Positions 1-50,429 of a DNA stretch of 64,000 bases are shown one piece after another. Location: assembly GCF_003334305.1 (NCBI RefSeq), contig NZ_QOWS01000017.1; one strand, written 5' to 3'. Position 1 is the stretch's first letter, and each line of letters opens with the position of its first letter. The position numbers were made by a program, and so were the translations under genes. This DNA is from Escherichia coli. Its GTDB lineage: Bacteria; Pseudomonadota; Gammaproteobacteria; Enterobacterales; Enterobacteriaceae. The notes under the pieces were generated by a model that worked only from the letters and a program-made list of their open reading frames with translations, made no database searches and was not told where the DNA came from.

Positions 1-1104
1 GCCCCATACCTGCCACGCCAGTGGTGCACCGACGCCGCGCCCCCGGCTAAACAGCTTATTGACCCGCTGGGGGCGTTTGCTGATCACGCGACCGTTAACG
101 ATCACCTCAACTTCCACATCGTAAATCCCGTACGGTAGACCCCGGGTATCCACTTCATGATTGCCCATAGTGAAGTTCTGAACGCTTAGTAGCCGCCCAT
201 CACGGGTGAGATGTACTTCGCCCGCCGCCGGTAAAAAGGCGATCACTGGCGTGGCTGACTGGCTGCTGTCGAAGATGGTGGAGCTGGCCTGGTTTCCCCA
301 GGAAAGGCCGTAAATCTTCCCTGCTGAAATGGCGGTCATCGGCCCTAAGGACTGCAAGTTCCAGGTGTCGAGCATTCCACCGGCAAATCGGTGACCGGCA
401 AAATCGCGTTCATACATCGCTTTATATAATTCACTGTCCTGTTGACCGCTACCGATCCCGTACAGCGAGCCGTCGAGCACCACATGATGTTCGCGCAGCG
501 CAGTAACGTTATTCAGCGACAGATAGCTGGATGTGTTGCTCCCGCCGTTACGCAACTGGTTGTTATAGACGCCCAAGTTATAGCTCAGATTACTGCTGAG
601 GGTGTTAACACTGGACTGCCCGATGTCTTCGCTACGTGAGCGTAGTACGGTGCCCAGCGCTTCGCGCTTGACCACCAGCTGCAGCAGCAGTTGGCGCAAG
701 CTGAGATCCAGCTGCGCGTTGTCAGTCAGGGGGATGGTAAGGGCCTCATTGAACGGGGCGTTGGCCAGAGCCATCAGCTGCTGTCGAGTTTGTTCGCTGA
801 CACTGGCGTTATCTTCACTCTCTTCCAGCTGTATTTTCCGGATGCGTAGCTGTCCATCATCCAGCCAGATAAAAGCGCTGCCGATTCGCTGATCGTCCTG
901 GCGACCCTGGCTACCGGCGAGATGAATATAGAGCGGGACGCTCATGCCGTCCTGAAGCGCCTGACTGAAGGCCTGCGGAATAATCACCCCACCTATTTGC
1001 TGCGCACTTATGTCAGCAGCGCTGGCATCGGGTTGAACGAACAAAAAGACCATGCCGAAGGCAAACTGGGCTTTCAGTCCTGGGGAGAACCGTCGTAAAG
1101 GCAT
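1..1104 (-). CDS. ecpC: EcpC (MatD) fimbrial outer-membrane usher, N-terminal part; gene continues beyond the window edge
   Basis: Minus-strand frame open from an ATG at 1104..1102 to the window edge; sits immediately downstream of the ecpB chaperone gene in the ecpRABCDE order. Start found by hand translation; not in the ORF track because it runs off the window. Confidence 0.8.
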
Positions 1105-1129
1105 TGTCGTTATCCATCTGCACAGCTAT

Positions 1130-1798
1130 CTATTTCACGGGAATGAACTTATCACCCTGCCAAAGTGCAACCCGTCCTTTGTTATCCGCAGTGTCCACAC
1201 GGGTAAAACGACGCGACTTGCCCGGCATCAGGTAGTAATTCTCTTTACACTCCTTACCGTTGGCGGCTTTCAGGCAAGGGCCGTAGGCGAGGATCCGCAG
1301 CGTCGCATTTCCTGTATTTGTCAGGGAGCCGTTGGCGTACTGAAAGTGGTAGTTCGCCTGGCGAGGGGCGACGACCAGAATGGTGCCGATGCGGGCGGAA
1401 GCAGTGGCCACAGCGCTGCGGTTGGCATTATCGCGCTGCGCATCACTGAGGGCCTGATCAAACCAGACAATGCGGTAGTAGCGCTCTTTTTCATCTGCGG
1501 GTCCCTTATAGAAGAAGCGGATCACTTCGCTGGCTTGGGCGGGTAGCAGCAAGCTGGCGGGAGTGAGTAGCAACTCATCCGGCTTGTCCATTGAGATAAC
1601 CTGCCCGTCGTCAAGCGGTGAAGAGAGCCGTTCGAGACGGATATTGATAAGGCGACCACTGTCGGTACTGTTTTTGATCGTTTTGCTCAGCGTGCTGCTG
1701 TCACTGTTCATAAACGATGATATATCGCCGACATCCAGCGCCTGGGCCGGAGGTATTCCGGAAAACAGCAGAGCGAGAGGCAGAAGGTGCTTTTTCAT
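1130..1798 (-). CDS. ecpB: EcpB (MatC) periplasmic fimbrial chaperone, 222 aa
   Basis: 222-aa ORF with a signal peptide ([20 protein letters not shown]); position between ecpA and ecpC matches the E. coli common pilus operon. Confidence 0.85.
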
Positions 1799-1812
1799 AA
1801 CAATTCCGTCCA

Positions 1813-1841
1813 GGAATAAAGCAGGGGGGCTACCCCTGCTG
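1813..1841 (-). terminator. Hairpin plus T-run between ecpA and ecpB; likely partial (attenuating) intrinsic terminator after the major pilin gene
   Basis: Stem agcagggg (1820-1827) / cccctgct (1833-1840) with a 5-nt loop; on the minus-strand transcript it is followed by UUUAUUCC. Confidence 0.5.
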
Positions 1842-1855
1842 GTACATCAGAGAGA

Positions 1856-2443
1856 TTAACTGGTCCAGGTCGCGTCGAACTGTACGCTAACGTCGCCGCT
1901 CCAGATGCCTTCCGGTAGAGTGCTGTAATCGGTTACTGCGGTGGTACCATTGGTGGTGCCGCTGATGATGGTGAAGGTGAAACCATCCTGTGCGGTGGTA
2001 CGATTGCTGGCATTGTAACCGTTAGCCAGCGGGCTAAGGTTGCCGCCCAGTACGCCGTTGGCGGTATCGATCATCACGGTATCGCCAGTTTTTTCGACTG
2101 CCGCGCCGTTATAATCCACGCCCACATTCAGTGTGGAACCTGAGGTATCCAACTGGGTTAATGTGTTGGTGATAAGACGTGAGGTCAGTTTAAAGGCGGT
2201 AGCCGTTGAGTCACCCTCGATAGCCACGTCAAATAGACCTTTCTGTGAGTTAAAACCTTTAATGCCTTCGGCATACTGGAACGCCAGGCTACCGAGTGGC
2301 GTCACAACCAGCTTACTGGTGGTGTCTTTTTTGGCTGTTGCCGACCAGGTCGCTACAGCCTGAGCTGTTACGTCAGCAGCCTGCGCCACACCCATGCCGG
2401 TAAACACCGTTACCAGAGCTATTGCCAGAACCTTTTTTTTCAT
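1856..2443 (-). CDS. ecpA: EcpA (MatB) major subunit of the E. coli common pilus, 195 aa
   Basis: 195-aa ORF with signal peptide ([22 protein letters not shown]) and Thr/Ser-rich pilin-like body; operon position. Confidence 0.85.
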
Positions 2444-2517
2444 TGCATTTCTTCCCGAGTTGAATTGAGGACGTGATGTCCCAGTGAGTCATTTTTTAAA
2501 ACTAACTTGCCTGGAGT

Positions 2518-3129
<612 letters not shown>

Positions 3130-3878
3130 TTACAGGTGCATTCAGTTTCCTTAGTAAACCGGAAGTAAATAAGATACGTAGTACATATCAATAAAGGTTA
3201 AACGAGATTAAGTTTAATTATTTTCGATTGGGCTTAAATTTATGTTTTTTTCCCGATGAGTGTCAATATGTGAACGGAAAAGGAATTCAATGGTTAAGTC
3301 AATATTTAGAAAAACTGAAAATATTGCTTTTTTGATAAGAAGAAAAAGACATTTGGTTTCATAAGGTTATTGGCAATATAACGTTCAATTCTTACTTGCA
3401 TTTTATATTGGTCAGGAACTTTGCCCTGAAGTGTTAGGAATAGTCTTAATGCGCTGTGTGATGGACTAGTAAAAAAAACAAGTTTTAAGGGTAAGGGATA
3501 GAATATAAAACTATAATGAGCTGTCATTGAAGATGATTTGCCAATCAGTAAGAAATTTTAATGGATTAACATGCCGCACAAAATGGTTATAGGTGTTCAT
3601 TACAATAAGTGATGGAAAATTGAACGGGCGTATGTACGTCATCTGTTCGGTAAGACCCCCAAGAGCCAGATTAAGTGAAGTTAAACGAAGGCTGCCAGCT
3701 GTCACAGGAACGATGGCCTCTTTGTCAGGGCACTGAGTGCAGTTATCTGTGCGCGTTACTCTAACTGGCACTCGAACGTCGGCGATGGGCTTACCGGTGG
3801 ATCAAACTGTTCCTGTGGCGTAAACGTTTTTATGTTAGTACCAACAGATTTACCACATTTATCATCTTAACAGTTTGA

Positions 3879-4112
3879 GTGAAAACGCAGGCTGCGCCGC
3901 AAAGGGAGGAGACTGAGTGGCGTGTTCAGTCTAAAAGAGGGTTGATGCCAGCATACAGGGGCGAAGCTGGTCAACAAGTCAACATTAAGATAATGGAATA
4001 TTCGGAGAGAAACGTCAGGCAGTTGGCCTCAAATGAACAGGAAGAATATATCCCCAGGAAAATTAATGTTGGTGTTATAAACACACCAACATTAATCCGA
4101 TCTGATTATTAA
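3879..4112 (+). CDS. Small hypothetical protein (77 aa), possibly the K-12 ykgL equivalent
   Basis: ORF in the ecpR–ykgO intergenic region; no recognisable domain. Position is the only support. Confidence 0.25.
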   Translation: MKTQAAPQREETEWRVQSKRGLMPAYRGEAGQQVNIKIMEYSERNVRQLASNEQEEYIPRKINVGVINTPTLIRSDY

Positions 4113-4146
4113 TCAGACAAATATCGTTAATTCGTCGAATTTTGAA

Positions 4147-4287
4147 TCAACGTTTTTTCTTACGACCCTGAACGGCCTTAAAACGTGGATTAGATTTACA
4201 AATCACATACAACCGTCCTTTTCGCTTCACAATCTGACAGTCTTGATGGCGTTCTTTTGCGGTACGCAGAGAGTTAAGAACTTTCAT
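4147..4287 (-). CDS. ykgO: Ribosomal protein L36 paralogue (zinc-independent type), 46 aa
   Basis: Hand translation of the minus strand gives [46 protein letters not shown]; its ATG overlaps the ykgM stop (TAATG). Confidence 0.9.
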
Positions 4288-4550
4288 TACGCCCCCTTTT
4301 TCGTGCTAACAAAACGACCAAAACGTTGGGTGAACCGTGCAACATTTCCTTCTGATGCCACTGTTCTCAGCTTCCCTGTATAGAACGGGTGCGATTTCGA
4401 AGAGACATCAATTGTTACGTACGGATACGTTACGCCATCCAGCTCAATCTCACGGTCTGTTTTGATAGTCGAGCCGATTTTAAAGTACTCATCAACACTG
4501 GTGTCGTGGAACACCACAGTACGATACTCAGGATGGATATTGGGCTTCAT
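4287..4550 (-). CDS. ykgM: Ribosomal protein L31 paralogue (type B, zinc-independent), 87 aa
   Basis: [30 protein letters not shown]...; start taken at the second Met of the track ORF to give 87 aa. Confidence 0.9.
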
Positions 4551-4561
4551 CATTTTTACCT

Positions 4562-4579
4562 GTTATGTTATAACATAAC
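4562..4579. promoter_or_regulatory. Zur box (zinc uptake regulator operator) in the ykgM-ykgO promoter
   Basis: Palindrome GTTATGTTATAACATAAC starts 12 bp upstream of the ykgM start codon; matches the Zur consensus core (ATGTTATAACAT). Confidence 0.75.
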
Positions 4580-4912
4580 CATAAAGATACATGCTCATCC
4601 GGATCATTTCAACACCCAATCCCTGTGACTCTTTGTGGATGTGGAATTTTCGCAACGGGGAACTCTGGCATTGTTAGCAGCCATTGGTGACGCTCCCATA
4701 AACGCCTGGATGAGTGATTGATGATGGTTTTGCTGAGAGTATGGATTTTTCGACAATGGAGGTTATCTCCACTTTACTGGCCGATGATTTATCGCAGTAT
4801 GATTGATTACCTGACAGCGTGTATTCCTCTCCCACGGATATAATAATTACTTACAAAAAGGGAGAGGATGCATATTTTAAATATCACTGAAGTGAACAGT
4901 TTATTGCCGTTA

Positions 4913-5014
4913 TTAATAGAAATGGAGAAATAAATAGGCGTATTCTACAATTGCGACAAAAACAACGATATTAATCAGTTTATGACTGATTTGTTGTACT
5001 TTATTCTCTTTCAT
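4913..5014 (-). CDS. ykgR: YkgR small membrane protein, 33 aa
   Basis: Hand translation of the minus strand: MKENKVQQISHKLINIVVFVAIVEYAYLFLHFY followed by a stop; hydrophobic C-terminal half. Confidence 0.7.
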   Translation of the reverse strand: MKENKVQQISHKLINIVVFVAIVEYAYLFLHFY

Positions 5015-6129
5015 TGGTACTTCCTCGCTTTAAAAAAGAGCGCACTTCGTAAGTGCCCTTATATAAATAACGAGTTTGGTCAACCAATTTTTTGACATGT
5101 ATCACAAATTTGAATAGATGTATTACATCGGCTATCTTTTATTGCACCAACGTCATTGATATATGTCGCCTGAAGTCAGTTCCGGGAATGAGTCTGATCT
5201 CAAGACTGGCCCAGTCCGGGCGTTGATTGGCGCTGAGGAGCATATCGCATCTCATCATAATGTCGTATCTCCTGGGGTGTTATACAAGATATCGTTGTTG
5301 GTGACCTGGGAGAGGAATTGAGTTCTATTAAACCGTCAACTATGCCGGATACATACTGGATTACACTGCAGGCACGCCTTACGAGAGAACGTGCCGCAGT
5401 GACGGGTTAATTATCTGAAAGAATTTGTGAGGCTGTATCGGTTACTCATTGATTTGATAGTTTTACTCTCGGGAGAGTAATAGATATTTAATCTATTAAC
5501 GGAAACCAGCCAGTTCCTTTCGATGCCTGAATTTGATTCCATAGTTTATCCGGAATGGTTAATTCATGAATAAGTTGTGTTCTCGTTCATGAGAAGCATA
5601 ACGTAAAGGGAAAAGCTCGATTAGACGGCAGGATTTGTCAGGGGTTATGAACGAAATTCATAAATCTGTTTGAGTGTTGCGATGGGTAGTGCAAGTTCGA
5701 AATCTCCGCAATTTACAGTCCGATGAAGGAAAATGAATATCCATAAAAAATATATCGATTTATTCTGGCGTATATACCTACTTCGACGTATTTCCAATAG
5801 TTGTTAATTAAAGGCAGGCCATTATTATTCACTCTGAATAATGAATTATTCACTGTCCGCAGAGTAAAAAATATAACTTAGGTGTCTATTTAATGACTTG
5901 CACAAAAAGCTAAATTTTCACCCATAAATAAAAATATAATCCCGCGCCCAACCACCTGATGAGTGGCTACAGACACTGGATATATTAGGTGGCGGTGCAC
6001 TTTCTTACATAAAGGTATTTCCTTTTCTGCGGAAAAGGAAATCGGGAAATCCCCGGTTTTTCTGACAAGCAGACGCCATTATTTGTGTCTGCCTATGTTC
6101 GTTAATTCGTTCATCAGGAAATTATCTCA

Positions 6130-9100
6130 ATGTCGCGTTATAAAACAGGTCATAAACAACCACGATTTCGTTATTCAGTTCTGGCCCGCTGCGTGGCGTG
6201 GGCAAATATCTCTGTTCAGGTTCTTTTTCCACTCGCTGTCACCTTTACCCCAGTAATGGCGGCACGTGCGCAGCATGCGGTTCAGCCACGGTTGAGCATG
6301 GGAAATACTACGGTAACTGCTGATAATAACGTGGAGAAAAATGTCGCGTCGTTTGCCGCAAATGCCGGGACATTTTTAAGCAGTCAGCCAGATAGCGATG
6401 CGACACGTAACTTTATTACCGGAATGGCCACAGCTAAAGCTAACCAGGAAATACAGGAGTGGCTCGGGAAATATGGTACTGCGCGCGTCAAACTGAATGT
6501 CGATAAAGATTTCTCGCTGAAGGATTCTTCGCTGGAAATGCTTTATCCGATTTATGATACGCCAACAAATATGTTGTTCACTCAGGGAGCAATACATCGT
6601 ACCGACGATCGTACTCAGTCAAATATTGGTTTTGGCTGGCGTCATTTTTCAGGAAATGACTGGATGGCGGGGGTGAACACCTTTATCGACCATGATTTAT
6701 CCCGTAGTCATACCCGCATTGGTGTTGGTGCGGAATACTGGCGCGATTATCTGAAACTGAGCGCCAATGGTTATATTCGGGCTTCTGGCTGGAAAAAATC
6801 GCCGGATATTGAGGATTATCAGGAACGCCCGGCGAATGGTTGGGATATCCGCGCAGAGGGCTATTTACCTGCCTGGCCGCAGCTTGGCGCAAGCCTGATG
6901 TATGAACAGTATTATGGCGATGAAGTCGGGCTGTTTGGTAAAGATAAGCGCCAGAAAGACCCGCATGCTATTTCTGCCGAGGTGACCTATACGCCAGTGC
7001 CTCTTCTGACACTGAGCGCCGGGCATAAGCAGGGCAAGAGCGGTGAGAATGACACTCGCTTTGGCCTGGAAGTTAATTATCGGATTGGCGAACCTCTGGA
7101 GAAACAACTCGATACAGACAGCATTCGCGAGCGTCGAATGCTGGCAGGCAGCCGCTATGACCTGGTTGAGCGTAATAACAACATCGTTCTTGAGTACCGC
7201 AAATCTGAAGTGATCCGTATTGCTCTGCCTGAGCGTATTGAAGGTAAGGGCGGTCAGACACTTTCCCTGGGGCTTGTGGTCAGCAAAGCAACTCACGGAC
7301 TGAAAAATGTGCAGTGGGAAGCGCCGTCATTACTGGCTGAAGGTGGCAAAATTACCGGTCAGGGTAGTCAGTGGCAAGTAACGCTCCCGGCTTATCGTCC
7401 AGGCAAAGACAATTATTATGCGATTTCTGCGGTTGCCTACGATAACAAAGGCAATGCCTCAAAACGCGTGCAGACAGAGGTGGTCATTACCGGAGCAGGT
7501 ATGAGTGCCGATCGCACGGCGTTAACGCTTGACGGTCAGAGCCGTATTCAAATGCTTGCTAACGGTAATGAGCAAAGACCGCTGGTGCTGTCTCTGCGCG
7601 ACGCCGAGGGCCAGCCAGTCACGGGCATGAAAGATCAGATCAAGACTGAACTAACTTTCAAACCGGCTGGAAATATTGTGACTCGTACCCTGAAGGCCAC
7701 TAAATCACAGGCAAAGCCAACACTGGGTGAGTTCACCGAAACTGAAGCCGGGGTGTATCAGTCTGTCTTTACTACCGGAACGCAGTCAGGTGAGGCAACG
7801 ATTACTGTTAGCGTTGATGGCATGAGCAAAACCGTCACTGCAGAACTGCGGGCCACGATGATGGATGTGGCAAACTCCACCCTGAGCGCTAACGAGCCGT
7901 CAGGTGACGTGGTTGCTGATGGTCAGCAAGCCTATACGTTGACGTTGACTGCGGTGGACTCCGAGGGTAATCCGGTGACGGGAGAAGCCAGCCGCTTGCG
8001 ATTTGTTCCGCAAGACACTAATGGTGTAACCGTTGGTGCCATTTCGGAAATAAAACCAGGCGTTTACAGCGCCACGGTTTCTTCGACCCGTGCCGGAAAC
8101 GTTGTTGTGCGTGCTTTCAGCGAGCAGTATCAGCTGGGCACATTACAACAAACGCTGAAGTTTGTTGCCGGGCCGCTTGATGCAGCACATTCGTCCATCA
8201 CCCTGAATCCTGATAAACCGGTGGTTGGCGGTACAGTTACGGCAATCTGGACGGCAAAAGATGCTAATGACAACCCTGTAACTGGTCTCAATCCGGATGC
8301 ACCGTCATTATCGGGCGCAGCTGCTGTAGGTTCTACGGCATCAGGCTGGACGGATAATGGCGACGGGACCTGGACTGCGCAGATTTCTCTCGGCACTACG
8401 GCGGGTGAATTAGAGGTTATGCCGAAGCTAAATGGACAGGATGCGGCAGCGAATGCGGCTAAAGTAACCGTGGTGGCTGATGCGTTATCTTCAGGCCAGT
8501 CGACAGTGTCTGTAGCCGCAGATCGCGTAAAAGCAGGCGAAAGCACAACCGTGACGCTTATTGCAAAAGATGCACATGGCAACGCTATCAGTGGTCTTTC
8601 CCTGTCGGCAAGCCTGACGGGTGCTGCGTCTGAAGGGGCGACTGTTTCTGGTTGGACCGAAAAAGGTGATGGTTCCTATGTCGCTACGCTGACAACAGGT
8701 GGAAAGACGGGTGAGCTTCTCGTCATGCCGCTATTCAACGGCCAGCCAGCAGCCACCGAAGCCGCGCAGTTGACTGTCATTGCGGGGGAGATGTCATCAG
8801 CGAACTCTACGCTTGTTGCTGACAATAAGGCTCCGACCGTCAAAACGACGACGAAACTCACCTTCACCGTGAAGGATGCGTACGGGAACCTTGTCACCGG
8901 GCTGAAGCCAGATGCACCGCAGTTTAGTGGTGCCGCCAGCACGGGGACAGAGCGACCTTCAACAGGAGACTGGACAGAAACAAGTAATGGGGTCTACGTG
9001 GCGACCTTGACTCTGGGATCTGCCGCGGGCCAGTTGTCTGTGATGCCGCGAGTGAACGGCCAAAATGCCGTTGCTCAGCCACTGGTGCTGAATGTTGCTG

Positions 9101-10383
9101 GTGACGCATCTAAGGCTGAGATTCGTGATATGACGGTGAAGGTTGATAACCAGCTGGCTAATGGACAATCGACTAACCAGGTAACCCTGACCGTTGTGGA
9201 CACCTATGGTAACCCGTTGCAGGGACAAAATGTGACGCTGACTCTGCCGAAAGGTGTGACCAGCAAGACGGGGAATACGGTAACAACCGATGCGGCAGGT
9301 AAAGCCGACATTGAGCTGATGTCAACGGTTGCCGGGGAACACAGCATCACGGCCTCAGTGAATAATGCTCAGAAGACGGTTACGGTGAAATTCAAGGCGG
9401 ATTTCAGTACCGGTCAGGCGAGTCTGGAGGTTGATAGCGCCGCGCCAAAAGTAGCAAACGGCAAAGATGCCTTTACGCTGACGGCGACCGTTGAGGATAA
9501 AAATGGTAACCCTGTTCCAGGGAGCCTGGTGACCTTTAATCTGCCCCGGGGTGTCAAGCCGCTTACAGGCGATAATGTCTGGGTGAAAGCCAACGATGAG
9601 GGGACAGCAGAGTTGCAGGTGGTTTCAGTGACTGCCGGAACGTATGAGATCACGGCATCGGCGGGGAATAGCCAGCCTTCGGATACGCAGACTATAACGT
9701 TTGTAGCCGATAAGGCTACCGCAACCGTCTCCGGTATTGAGGTGATTGGCAACTATGCGCTGGCGGACGGCAAAGCCAAACAAACGTATAAAGTTACGGT
9801 GACTGATGCCAATAACAATTTGGTGAAAGATAGCGACGTGACGCTGACTGCCAGCCCGGCTTCGTTAAACCTGGAACCGAATGGCACTGCGACAACGAAT
9901 GAGCAAGGGCAGGCTATTTTCACCGCTACCACTACTGTTGCGGCGACATACACACTCAAGGCGCAAGTGAGTCAGACCAACGGTCAGGTATCAACGAAAA
10001 CTGCCGAATCTAAATTCGTTGCGGATGATAAAAACGCGGTACTCACCGCATCATCTGATATGCAATCTCTGGTGGCGGATGGGAAATCGACTGCGAAGCT
10101 GGAGGTGACACTGATGTCGGCAAACAACCCCGTTGGCGGGAATATGTGGGTCGACATTCAGACGCCGGAAGGGGTGACGGAGAAGGATTATCAGTTCCTG
10201 CCGTCGAAAAATGACCATTTCGTGAGCGGAAAAATCACGCGTAAATTTAGTACCAGCAAGCCTGGTGTCTATACGTTCACATTTAACGCCCTGACCTATG
10301 GCGGGTACGAAATGAAGCCAGTGACGGTGACCATTACCGCGGTGGATGCCGATACGGCAAAGGACGAGGAGGCGATGAAATAA
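6130..10383 (+). CDS. eaeH: Intimin/invasin-family outer-membrane adhesin EaeH (FdeC), intact 1417-aa form
   Basis: 1417-aa ORF: N-terminal region and beta-barrel segment followed by many Ig-like (Big) repeats with recurring ...TVTAxDAxGNPV... units; lies next to ykgA. Confidence 0.85.
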   Translation: MSRYKTGHKQPRFRYSVLARCVAWANISVQVLFPLAVTFTPVMAARAQHAVQPRLSMGNTTVTADNNVEKNVASFAANAGTFLSSQPDSDATRNFITGMATAKANQEIQEWLGKYGTARVKLNVDKDFSLKDSSLEMLYPIYDTPTNMLFTQGAIHRTDDRTQSNIGFGWRHFSGNDWMAGVNTFIDHDLSRSHTRIGVGAEYWRDYLKLSANGYIRASGWKKSPDIEDYQERPANGWDIRAEGYLPAWPQLGASLMYEQYYGDEVGLFGKDKRQKDPHAISAEVTYTPVPLLTLSAGHKQGKSGENDTRFGLEVNYRIGEPLEKQLDTDSIRERRMLAGSRYDLVERNNNIVLEYRKSEVIRIALPERIEGKGGQTLSLGLVVSKATHGLKNVQWEAPSLLAEGGKITGQGSQWQVTLPAYRPGKDNYYAISAVAYDNKGNASKRVQTEVVITGAGMSADRTALTLDGQSRIQMLANGNEQRPLVLSLRDAEGQPVTGMKDQIKTELTFKPAGNIVTRTLKATKSQAKPTLGEFTETEAGVYQSVFTTGTQSGEATITVSVDGMSKTVTAELRATMMDVANSTLSANEPSGDVVADGQQAYTLTLTAVDSEGNPVTGEASRLRFVPQDTNGVTVGAISEIKPGVYSATVSSTRAGNVVVRAFSEQYQLGTLQQTLKFVAGPLDAAHSSITLNPDKPVVGGTVTAIWTAKDANDNPVTGLNPDAPSLSGAAAVGSTASGWTDNGDGTWTAQISLGTTAGELEVMPKLNGQDAAANAAKVTVVADALSSGQSTVSVAADRVKAGESTTVTLIAKDAHGNAISGLSLSASLTGAASEGATVSGWTEKGDGSYVATLTTGGKTGELLVMPLFNGQPAATEAAQLTVIAGEMSSANSTLVADNKAPTVKTTTKLTFTVKDAYGNLVTGLKPDAPQFSGAASTGTERPSTGDWTETSNGVYVATLTLGSAAGQLSVMPRVNGQNAVAQPLVLNVAGDASKAEIRDMTVKVDNQLANGQSTNQVTLTVVDTYGNPLQGQNVTLTLPKGVTSKTGNTVTTDAAGKADIELMSTVAGEHSITASVNNAQKTVTVKFKADFSTGQASLEVDSAAPKVANGKDAFTLTATVEDKNGNPVPGSLVTFNLPRGVKPLTGDNVWVKANDEGTAELQVVSVTAGTYEITASAGNSQPSDTQTITFVADKATATVSGIEVIGNYALADGKAKQTYKVTVTDANNNLVKDSDVTLTASPASLNLEPNGTATTNEQGQAIFTATTTVAATYTLKAQVSQTNGQVSTKTAESKFVADDKNAVLTASSDMQSLVADGKSTAKLEVTLMSANNPVGGNMWVDIQTPEGVTEKDYQFLPSKNDHFVSGKITRKFSTSKPGVYTFTFNALTYGGYEMKPVTVTITAVDADTAKDEEAMK

Positions 10384-19609: not shown

Positions 19610-20278
19610 TTACTGCCCAGAGTTTTGTTGGTATTCATCTACCATTTTTTTGACAAGGCAAAACATTACAGAAATTACAATGCTTAGAAAAAATCCCAGA
19701 GCCAGGCAAATGGCAGCAGGGTATTTATTTTTTATTTCTGGTGAGCTTATAGTTACACAGCCATCACCGTTCGGATACAATGACCAGTTCCTGGTCAGGT
19801 ATATCATTTTTGTATAAAGCTCACTGTTAATTGCTGAAGGCGTTTGTATCTCATCGAGAACTTGCCTGCCATTATGATATTCTGACGCATACCATTTGAT
19901 AATAGAGGCCTGCACGCGAGATATTTCCTCTTCAGCAGTTGGTAAAGCTCTCTTATCTCCTGACCATTCCAGCCTTATTTCTCTGTTCTTGACATCTGGG
20001 CTGGTCTGAAAAAATGTAGTAATTCGCTGAATAACATCTTCAGTCATTGTGGTCTGACAGGCAAAATTATTATTGCTATCACAGCTAACAAGTATACCTG
20101 GCGTTGTCTGGTTTATTTTTAGGCTGTAAATCACTTTTATATTGTCTTTATTGATAAACAGAAACAACAGCACCATAGCCATACATATAGCCATAATAAA
20201 AAGGATAACACGAATCTTTTTCTTCAGATAAAATAAAATCTCAATCAGATCGATATCCTGTTTGATTTGTTCACGCAT
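19610..20278 (-). CDS. ykgH: YkgH inner-membrane protein, 222 aa
   Basis: Transmembrane segments near both the N- and C-termini; conserved position between ykgG and the bet region. Confidence 0.8.
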   Translation of the reverse strand: MREQIKQDIDLIEILFYLKKKIRVILFIMAICMAMVLLFLFINKDNIKVIYSLKINQTTPGILVSCDSNNNFACQTTMTEDVIQRITTFFQTSPDVKNREIRLEWSGDKRALPTAEEEISRVQASIIKWYASEYHNGRQVLDEIQTPSAINSELYTKMIYLTRNWSLYPNGDGCVTISSPEIKNKYPAAICLALGFFLSIVISVMFCLVKKMVDEYQQNSGQ

Positions 20279-20461
20279 AATATATCCAGAAAATAAAATC
20301 TGCCGCAGATAAGGTTGTATTAATAGCCTGTATCAGGAATGTTCGGGGTAAATATCAGCAAAAAACCAGCATCATGAATACTGGATGTTTATAGCCTGCA
20401 GGCAGCAGTATGCTGCCTGCAGGGGGTATAACAGTCGACAGGGGAACCGACTGCTTTATTC

Positions 20462-48929: not shown

Positions 48930-50429
48930 TTGCCAGGGGATGTTATGGAAACTTTCCTTTCCCTTCGTCATATCAACAAAACGTTTCATGCCACGCGAGC
49001 GCTGCGCGATGTTTCTCTCGACTTTATGTCGGGTGAAGTGCACTGCCTTGCCGGGCAAAACGGCTGTGGTAAATCGACGTTGATTAAAATTATGTCCGGT
49101 GTTTATCGCCCGGATGAGGGAGCGGAAATTACGCTTGGTGGGAAAAACTGGTCAAAGCTGACACCCGCCGCTTCGGTGGCGCAGGGGATTCAGGTGATTT
49201 ATCAGGACCTCTCTTTATTTCCTAACCTGAGTGTCTGGGAGAATATCGCCGTGAATCACTATCACCACGGTCTGTTTGTTAACCGCCGTCGTCTGCGTGA
49301 GGTGGCGCAGGCGGCAATGACCAGTATTAACGTCACATTGCCACTGGATACACTCGTTTCTGAGCTTTCAATTGCCCGCTGTCAGCTGGTAGCAATTTGC
49401 CGTGCACTGGCGCAGGACGCACGGTTGATCGTGATGGATGAACCAACCGCTTCGCTGACCCATCAGGAAGTGCAAGGGTTATTACAGGTGGTGCATCAAT
49501 TGCGGGAACGCGGGATCTGCGTGGTCTTCGTCAGTCATCGTCTGGAAGAAGTGATGGAAGTTTCCGACCGTATTTCAGTGCTGAAAGATGGTGAGCTGGT
49601 CGGGACTTTTCCGGCTGCAGAGATGACCACAAAACAACTCGGTTTCCTGATGACCGGCCAGGAGTTCGAATATCAGGTGCGAGAGTTGTGGCAGGGAAAA
49701 TCCAGCACCCCGGTGCTTGAGGTGCGTAATTTAAGTCGTCATGGGGAATATCTAAATATTAACTTGCGGGTGGAAGCGGGCGAAGTGGTATCGATTGTTG
49801 GCCTGCTTGGTGCGGGGCGCACGGAATTATGTCTGAGTCTGTTTGGTATGACCCGACCGGATGCTGGCGAGATCCTCATCAACGGCCAGCCGGTTACACT
49901 GCATAGTAACCAGGACGCTATCCGCCACGGTATTGGTTATGTTTCGGAAGATCGCATGTCGCGCGGTTTGGTGATGGCGCAATCTATTGAAGACAACATC
50001 ATTAGCACTGTTTTTCACAAGGTAAAAGATCGCTTCGGCTTTCTGAGTGAAACTAAAGTTCGTGACCTGGTGGACAGGCTAATCAAGGCATTGACCATCA
50101 AAGTCTCTGATCCTCATCTTCCGGTGAATACGCTTTCTGGTGGTAACGCGCAGCGAGTATCGATCGCCAAATGGCTGGCGATTGGGCCACGACTGTTGAT
50201 TCTCGATAGCCCGACAGTCGGTGTTGATATCGCCAACAAAGCAGGAATATACGGCATTATCAGCGATCTGGCGGCTCATGGCATTGCGGTATTGATGATC
50301 TGCGATGAAATTGAAGAAGCGTGGTATCAAAGCCACCGGATTTTGGTAATGCAAAAAGGTCAGATCACCCATAGCTTCCTGCCTGACAGCAGTTCTCAGG
50401 CCAGGATTGCGGAGGTGGTAAATGGCTGA
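48930..50429 (+). CDS. ABC transporter ATP-binding protein with two fused ATPase domains (LsrA/RbsA-like)
   Basis: Walker A GQNGCGKST, ABC signature LSGGNAQRV, and a second degenerate nucleotide-binding domain; start may be the Met at 48945. Confidence 0.8.
   Translation: MPGDVMETFLSLRHINKTFHATRALRDVSLDFMSGEVHCLAGQNGCGKSTLIKIMSGVYRPDEGAEITLGGKNWSKLTPAASVAQGIQVIYQDLSLFPNLSVWENIAVNHYHHGLFVNRRRLREVAQAAMTSINVTLPLDTLVSELSIARCQLVAICRALAQDARLIVMDEPTASLTHQEVQGLLQVVHQLRERGICVVFVSHRLEEVMEVSDRISVLKDGELVGTFPAAEMTTKQLGFLMTGQEFEYQVRELWQGKSSTPVLEVRNLSRHGEYLNINLRVEAGEVVSIVGLLGAGRTELCLSLFGMTRPDAGEILINGQPVTLHSNQDAIRHGIGYVSEDRMSRGLVMAQSIEDNIISTVFHKVKDRFGFLSETKVRDLVDRLIKALTIKVSDPHLPVNTLSGGNAQRVSIAKWLAIGPRLLILDSPTVGVDIANKAGIYGIISDLAAHGIAVLMICDEIEEAWYQSHRILVMQKGQITHSFLPDSSSQARIAEVVNG

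Follow-up and report, generated by a model that had tools for sequence, protein, structure and literature searches.

The ykgM-ykgO operon of an Escherichia coli strain, a known zinc-sparing ribosomal protein switch with a predicted Zur operator

The ykgM and ykgO genes in the 64-kb stretch of Escherichia coli DNA analyzed here (the window) almost certainly form the operon that acts as a zinc-sparing ribosomal protein switch under the control of Zur. Both strands of the window were read and their ORFs listed; the two genes, the Zur box and the promoter lie on the minus strand. This is an ordinary, well-studied and experimentally characterized system, so that nothing at the locus is new and it matters only as a correct annotation. 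The anatomy of the locus, the family membership of its proteins, the identity of its operator to that of K-12 and the cross-species association of the operator sequence with Zur-regulon genes come from the present analysis.

The two proteins were classified using NCBIfam profiles. The ykgM gene (4287..4550, minus strand) encodes 87 amino acids of a type B, zinc-free L31 protein (bL31B) that scores 122.8 bits against NF002462 (type B L31; cutoff 86) over profile positions 1-79 of 80. In the ORF list, ykgO (4147..4287, minus strand) encodes a 46-aa type B L36 protein (bL36B), which scores 89.7 bits against NF002021 (type B L36; cutoff 70) over the full length of the profile (1-41 of 41). None of the 87 residues of YkgM is a cysteine, and the CxxC zinc ligands of type A L31 are lost; the cysteine count is independent of the comparison with RpmE. 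YkgO retains two cysteines (C17 and C30) and one histidine (H14). Type A L36 proteins carry the zinc-ribbon ligand set C-x2-C...C-x5-H. In an alignment with RpmJ, C17 and C30 align with the second and third RpmJ ligands, and the first cysteine ligand and the histidine ligand presumably correspond to YkgO K11 and F36, respectively. H14 precedes C17 by three residues, which is the spacing of the C-x2-C pair in RpmJ.

YkgM is identical to its K-12 counterpart, and YkgO differs from the K-12 protein by a single substitution, P15Q (codon 4243-4245, minus strand). A solved ribosome structure, PDB 6i7v, includes both E. coli paralogues as chains and names them 50S ribosomal proteins. YkgM matches all 68 residues of chain D7 ("50S ribosomal protein L31 type B"), and YkgO matches "L36 2" at 44 of 45 aligned residues, the one difference again being P15Q. 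Judged by this structure, YkgM and YkgO of the window are probably components of the 70S ribosome.

The genes overlap by one base at TAATG (4285..4289, minus strand), as the original prediction had it: the ykgM stop codon TAA occupies 4289-4287, the ykgO ATG occupies 4287-4285, and base 4287 belongs to both codons. The pair had also been called intact, which agrees with the full length of both ORFs. This one-base overlap is the classical layout for translational coupling, and YkgO synthesis may well be coupled to that of YkgM. No notable RNA structure was found at the junction (4270-4310; z = +0.68). Because of the overlap, there is no room for an internal ykgO promoter. The pair thus shows the features of a bicistronic operon, namely a stop/start overlap, a single promoter and a strong hairpin after ykgO.

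Two adjacent in-frame ATG codons (ATGATG at 4548-4553, minus strand) are found at the beginning of ykgM. Counted from the first, the ORF spans 4287..4553 and encodes 88 amino acids. The second (4550; 87 amino acids) is the start assigned by PGAP to an identical sequence and favored by the NCBIfam profile, and a single ykgM ATG is present in E. albertii and in a divergent Escherichia genome. A putative Shine-Dalgarno-like AGGT (4558..4561, minus strand), recognized by reading the sequence, directly follows the operator. Its spacing decides for neither ATG: between G4559 of the AGG and the codon there are 5 nt for the first ATG (4553) and 8 nt for the second (4550).

Downstream of ykgO is a candidate intrinsic terminator (4059..4096, minus strand) with a perfect 14-bp stem (4062-4075 paired with 4083-4096), a 7-nt loop and then UUUUCCU. 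The folded RNA of this region (4050-4150, minus strand, 101 nt) has a free energy of -30.7 kcal/mol (z = -4.55), and none of 200 shuffled sequences was as stable. This hairpin, which has a short U-tract, is a plausible terminator of the operon. A terminator is also drawn after ykgO in Fig. 2A of PMC7297116. The candidate terminator sits within the 3' end of ykgL (3879-4112, plus strand), a convergent 77-aa ORF that points toward ykgO and belongs to no NCBIfam family. In two strains its annotation records a frameshift, and in a third it is listed as a shorter hypothetical protein. These annotations, and the terminator-like hairpin in its 3' end, cast doubt on ykgL as a real protein-coding gene.

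Upstream of ykgM we identified GTTATGTTATAACATAAC (4562..4579), a Zur operator that is unique in the window and invariant in five E. coli. A near-perfect Zur palindrome had been predicted here; the Zur palindrome stands, but "near-perfect" does not, as the sequence is self-complementary at 18 of 18 positions. Relative to the A of the annotated start codon (4550), its near edge (4562) is at -12, consistent with the predicted distance of 12 bp; relative to the in-frame ATG farther upstream (4553), it is at -9. Even when up to three mismatches are allowed, the 18-mer occurs once in the window, and 100 shuffled sequences gave no match.

Zur assignment draws on published descriptions of the motif. 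The structure-based 18-bp inverted repeat is RxxxYRxxR*YxxYRxxxY, and the corresponding 20-mer is TGWNAYRWTATAWYRTNWCA (PMC4219657). Positions 4562-4579 fit the repeat at all eight constrained purine/pyrimidine positions. A motif scan, which had been proposed as a check, returned 4561-4580 as a match to TGWNAYRWTATAWYRTNWCA at 19 of 20 positions and as the sole match in the 64 kb with fewer than three mismatches. The skeletal motif RNNNYRNNRYNNYRNNNY was rejected as a detector, as it gave 223 matches in the window versus 278 expected. Since the skeleton alone is uninformative, support for Zur comes from the specific sequence. The 23-bp gamma-proteobacterial consensus GAAATGTTATANTATAACATTTC (Panina 2003) has no match within three mismatches because the operator is an even 9+9 palindrome. 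It is closer to the 18-bp consensus of the Rhodobacter group, GATATGTTATAACATATC, which it matches at 16 of 18 positions by eye. The mismatch to GAAATGTTATANTATAACATTTC leaves the assignment unweakened, as this operator, PL31p, is treated as a known Zur operator in PMC4219657. In that study (Gilston 2014), Zur protects about 30 bp of PL31p, the affinity for PL31p was measured, and two Zur dimers bind cooperatively at E. coli Zur operators. Of the four Zur operators of E. coli, that of L31p is the most palindromic and among the two most tightly bound (PMC4219657).

We also searched for the exact 18-mer in one genome per species (298 Gb), where about four occurrences are expected by chance according to our own estimate, which assumes uniform base composition. 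At least 120 sites were found. All but two of the 120 listed are in named Proteobacteria, the exceptions being a Brevinema MAG and an unclassified MAG. ORFs reading away from each site were clustered, and the cluster representatives were named with NCBIfam. Among the sites listed, 85 of 120 have at least one Zur-regulon gene as a direct neighbor. These neighbors encode ZigA (30 sites) and FolE2 (6), whose representatives score above the curated cutoffs; ZnuC (14), Zur (14), ZnuD (9), ZnuA (8) and ZinT (4), which are named by best-scoring family below the cutoff, ZnuD from the first 400 residues of its representative only; and L31B (6), plus L36B. According to tblastn, genes for L31B and/or L36B lie behind nine of the listed sites, including those in E. 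albertii, the divergent Escherichia genome, two species of Moritella, Acinetobacter, Aliivibrio, Enterovibrio and Morganella. At these sites, the 18-mer ends 2-36 nt before the L31B/L36B start codon, based on ORF calls and tblastn offsets.

Thus, as a by-product of this analysis, we find that the exact 18-mer recurs before Zur-regulon genes in alpha-, beta- and gamma-proteobacteria. This recurrence as a Zur-regulon operator rules out chance and supports the Zur assignment independently of the E. coli literature. It is also in line with the published ranking, in which PL31p is the most palindromic operator and one of the two most tightly bound. Several single genomes carry the identical 18-mer at two to four separate loci: Moritella (sites L026-L028 and L121-L124), a Burkholderiaceae MAG (L040-L042) and Nitrosomonas halophila (L113-L114). 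Given these two to four loci per genome, one exact operator is reused across the Zur regulon of those organisms.

A consensus scan for promoter elements returned a candidate -35 element, TTGAAA (4607..4612, minus strand), and, after a 17-nt spacer, a candidate -10 element, TATCTT (4584..4589, minus strand), which lies 4 nt before the Zur box. By sequence reading, there is an alternative extended -10-like element, TGtTATAAC, within the box (4567..4575, minus strand), so that the E. coli -10 may be either of two candidates. The TTGnnA of the -35 element is kept as TTGTAA in E. albertii and TTGATA in the divergent Escherichia genome. The -10 element is conserved in the Escherichia relatives as TATCTT/TATTCT, and in Moritella a -10-like TAGACT likewise lies 4 nt from the box. 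Transcription from the TATCTT promoter would start about 2-3 nt inside the box. The text of PMC4219657, PMC12279244 and PMC10410751, figures aside, gives neither a mapped E. coli transcription start nor the operator sequence. Repression by promoter occlusion would follow in both cases, as the footprint of about 30 bp covers either -10 and the start.

The position of the box relative to the transcription start bears on another role for the palindrome, which might also, or mainly, act in RNA, as a hairpin in the 5'-UTR that modulates translation or mRNA stability near the Shine-Dalgarno sequence. A transcript that began upstream of the box would include the palindrome and could form a 7-bp stem directly before the AGG. 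However, the predicted hairpin is weak (-6.4 kcal/mol, z = -0.85, with 35 of 200 shuffled sequences as stable), and the start predicted from TATCTT, inside the box, would remove its 5' arm. No Rfam match was found on either strand of 3400-5700 at E<=1. In other genomes, the 18-mer is also found between divergent genes, before unrelated genes and in both orientations, as expected of a DNA site. We therefore consider it very improbable that the palindrome has such a function in RNA.

Operators of the Fur family are all AT-rich inverted repeats of similar size, so that the palindrome might instead be bound by another member of this family (e.g., Fur) and the operon might answer to iron or another metal. 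Within 4540-4610, however, even the closest match to the 19-bp Fur consensus has mismatches at 9 of 19 positions, and the genes beside the identical 18-mer elsewhere are zinc-specific (ZnuABC, ZinT, ZigA, ZnuD and Zur). In K-12, derepression is reported in a zur deletion and not in a fur deletion. Regulation in K-12 has further been shown to depend on zur and to respond to zinc chelation (PMC4219657, PMC7297116). We regard control by such a regulator as extremely unlikely.

That the palindrome is a chance repeat and both genes are silent relics in the window's strain, for which nothing speaks beyond the AT-rich intergenic region, has a negligible probability: 100 shuffled sequences held no match, the palindrome stays constant next to 5' flanking bases that vary (TATGG, TATAG, TACGG), both ORFs are intact, and YkgM is identical across five strains in which the DNA of the region is 95-98.7% identical to the window.

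The reading of the locus as a Zur-controlled zinc-sparing switch can be set against published measurements. For K-12, Zur binding, the size of the repression, incorporation into the ribosome and the repression of rpmE are all taken from the literature. Zur represses zinT and L31p 560-980-fold in vivo in K-12 (PMC4219657), and a ykgM-lacZ fusion in K-12 is induced about 1000-fold by TPEN or in zur::kan (Aseev et al., 2020, PMC7297116). In E. coli Nissle, calprotectin induces ykgM about 2,500-fold and ykgO 1,000-fold (Xu et al., 2023, PMC10410751). In addition, L31p (L31B) represses translation of the rpmE (L31A) mRNA through the rpmE 5'-UTR (PMC9825181). The window and K-12 share the same operator and the same 65 nt next to the start codon, and by extension from K-12, zinc-loaded Zur would bind this operator and repress the pair in a zinc-dependent manner in the window's strain. 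The window contains no zur gene. The original prediction of a zinc-sparing ribosomal switch is borne out by the type B families above cutoff, the fit to the Zur motif and the K-12-identical operator. It was to fall if the pair showed no zinc-dependent regulation; this test has already been run in K-12 on an identical regulatory sequence, and the interpretation passed. No result of the analysis contradicts it.

Carried over from K-12 to this strain, the switch would work as follows. When zinc is sufficient, two zinc-loaded Zur dimers would bind cooperatively at 4562-4579. Their footprint of about 30 bp would extend over roughly 4556-4585, cover the two -10 candidates as well as the predicted start of transcription, and exclude RNA polymerase, leaving the operon silent. 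When zinc is limiting, Zur would lose its zinc and leave the DNA, and the operon would be derepressed about 1000-fold. A single mRNA would then yield YkgM (bL31B, which has no cysteines) followed by YkgO (bL36B) via the one-base stop/start overlap. The two proteins would take the places of the zinc-binding bL31A and bL36A in ribosomes, so that the zinc demand of the cell falls, and L31B would additionally repress translation of the rpmE (L31A) mRNA. Possession of an intact ribosome switch for zinc starvation is relevant to survival when the host sequesters zinc with calprotectin, and the same promoter has already been used in engineered calprotectin biosensors (PMC10410751).

The locus is widespread in the species. 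A 1.1-kb query matches 5,085 of 5,426 complete E. coli genomes (~94%), in which the genes are annotated as ykgM/ykgO. Neither the 18-mer nor its -12 spacing changes in K-12 or three divergent E. coli strains, among which the two bases 5' of the 18-mer vary. Matches in a plasmid collection comprise 16 records, which are megabase-sized sequences filed as plasmids and plasmids of roughly 213-233 kb. The latter, some of them from K-12 laboratory strains, we take to be F-primes carrying the chromosomal lac-proximal region. Mobile spread of ykgM-ykgO was rejected, the plasmid records being megabase-sized or presumed F-primes. A 30-kb plasmid record, NZ_CP104634.1, also carries ykgM-ykgO.

Two features of the pair are particular to this strain. 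The ykgM stop codon is TAA in the window and TGA in K-12 and the three other strains, where TGATG also gives a one-base overlap; on these sequences, TAATG is specific to the lineage of the window's strain. The YkgO version with Q15 is WP_000866441.1, and the common version with P15 is WP_000866436.1. Only about 45 of 5,062 E. coli records (~1% of complete genomes) are at least 99% identical over 4147-4300, which makes the TAA plus P15Q haplotype rare. TAA sits at the coupling junction, and P15Q falls between the vestigial ligand-like H14 and C17. If it were functionally meaningful, the haplotype could shift the YkgM:YkgO translation ratio, the residual metal binding of YkgO or its fit to the ribosome. 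Comparison with K-12 and the three strains revealed nothing pointing to a non-neutral haplotype, and we think it most doubtful that it is anything other than neutral.

Over 1-26500, the window is 100% identical to strain A7 (NZ_CP028767.1). Relative to strain 2012EL-2448, it is 98.6-99.6% identical with indels, and 100% identical over 3800-4900. The neighbors of the pair are the usual ones, with ecpR-ecpA-ecpB-ecpC on one side and ykgL, ykgR and fdeC on the other. The predicted proximity to adhesin loci is correct, as ecpR/ecpA/ecpB/ecpC lie at ~1-3100 and fdeC at ~6130-10380. The latter (plus strand), which encodes an inverse autotransporter adhesin, seems full length, as in 2012EL-2448.

Elsewhere in the window, a 6-kb segment (~20387-26369) is absent from 2012EL-2448. 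At least 80% of the length of a 6.3-kb query (20200-26500) is present in about 1,830 of 5,426 genomes. Genes annotated elsewhere for this segment are hyxR (a LuxR-family regulator), hyxA, hyxB (an autotransporter) and ipbA (a tyrosine DNA invertase). Inverted AAACTGACATTTTGATTC-like copies at ~24538-24568 and 24809-24826 may be the arms of an invertible switch. At ~49094-49102, the window is without an IS1A insertion found in 2012EL-2448. There, IS1A splits the ATP-binding gene of a sugar ABC transporter beside a gene for an autoinducer-2-type substrate-binding protein; this ATP-binding gene is presumably intact in the window.

The closest known system is the K-12 ykgM-ykgO pair (b0296-b4506) with its operator PL31p, which occupies the same locus and has the same neighbors (ecpR/matA, ykgL and ykgR). 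YkgM, the 18-bp palindrome, its -12 spacing and the proximal 65 nt are identical, and the one-base overlap is present in both. The K-12 pair differs in its TGA stop (TAA in the window), in P15 rather than Q15 of YkgO, and by one substitution about 66 nt upstream of the ykgM start. Farther along, fdeC is intact in the window, whereas its K-12 counterpart, eaeH, is a pseudogene disrupted by IS3.

The ykgM-rpmJ2 genes of Y. pestis are likewise an L31B-L36B pair, for which Zur repression was shown (PMC2706843). Primer extension and footprinting placed the Zur site of Y. pestis ykgM over the -10 element (PMC2706843). The box lies about 16-34 nt before the start codon in Y. pestis (PMC2706843), compared with 12-29 nt in the window. 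The boxes differ in type: that of Y. pestis, GATGTTACATTATAACATA, is an odd (9-1-9), imperfect 19-mer, and that of E. coli is an even (9+9), perfect palindrome.

Zur-regulated paralogues that lack the zinc-binding cysteines (C-) are also found in Gram-positive bacteria, such as YtiA/RpmEB of B. subtilis and the alternative ribosomal protein operons of mycobacteria and Streptomyces. These systems follow the same logic (see also the introduction of PMC9825181), with zinc-free paralogues of zinc-ribbon proteins that are repressed by Zur and induced by zinc starvation. They differ from the E. coli system in the operator, for which the Bacillus group consensus is TAAATCGTAATNATTACGATTTA (quoted in PMC2706843), in their gene sets and in operon organization.
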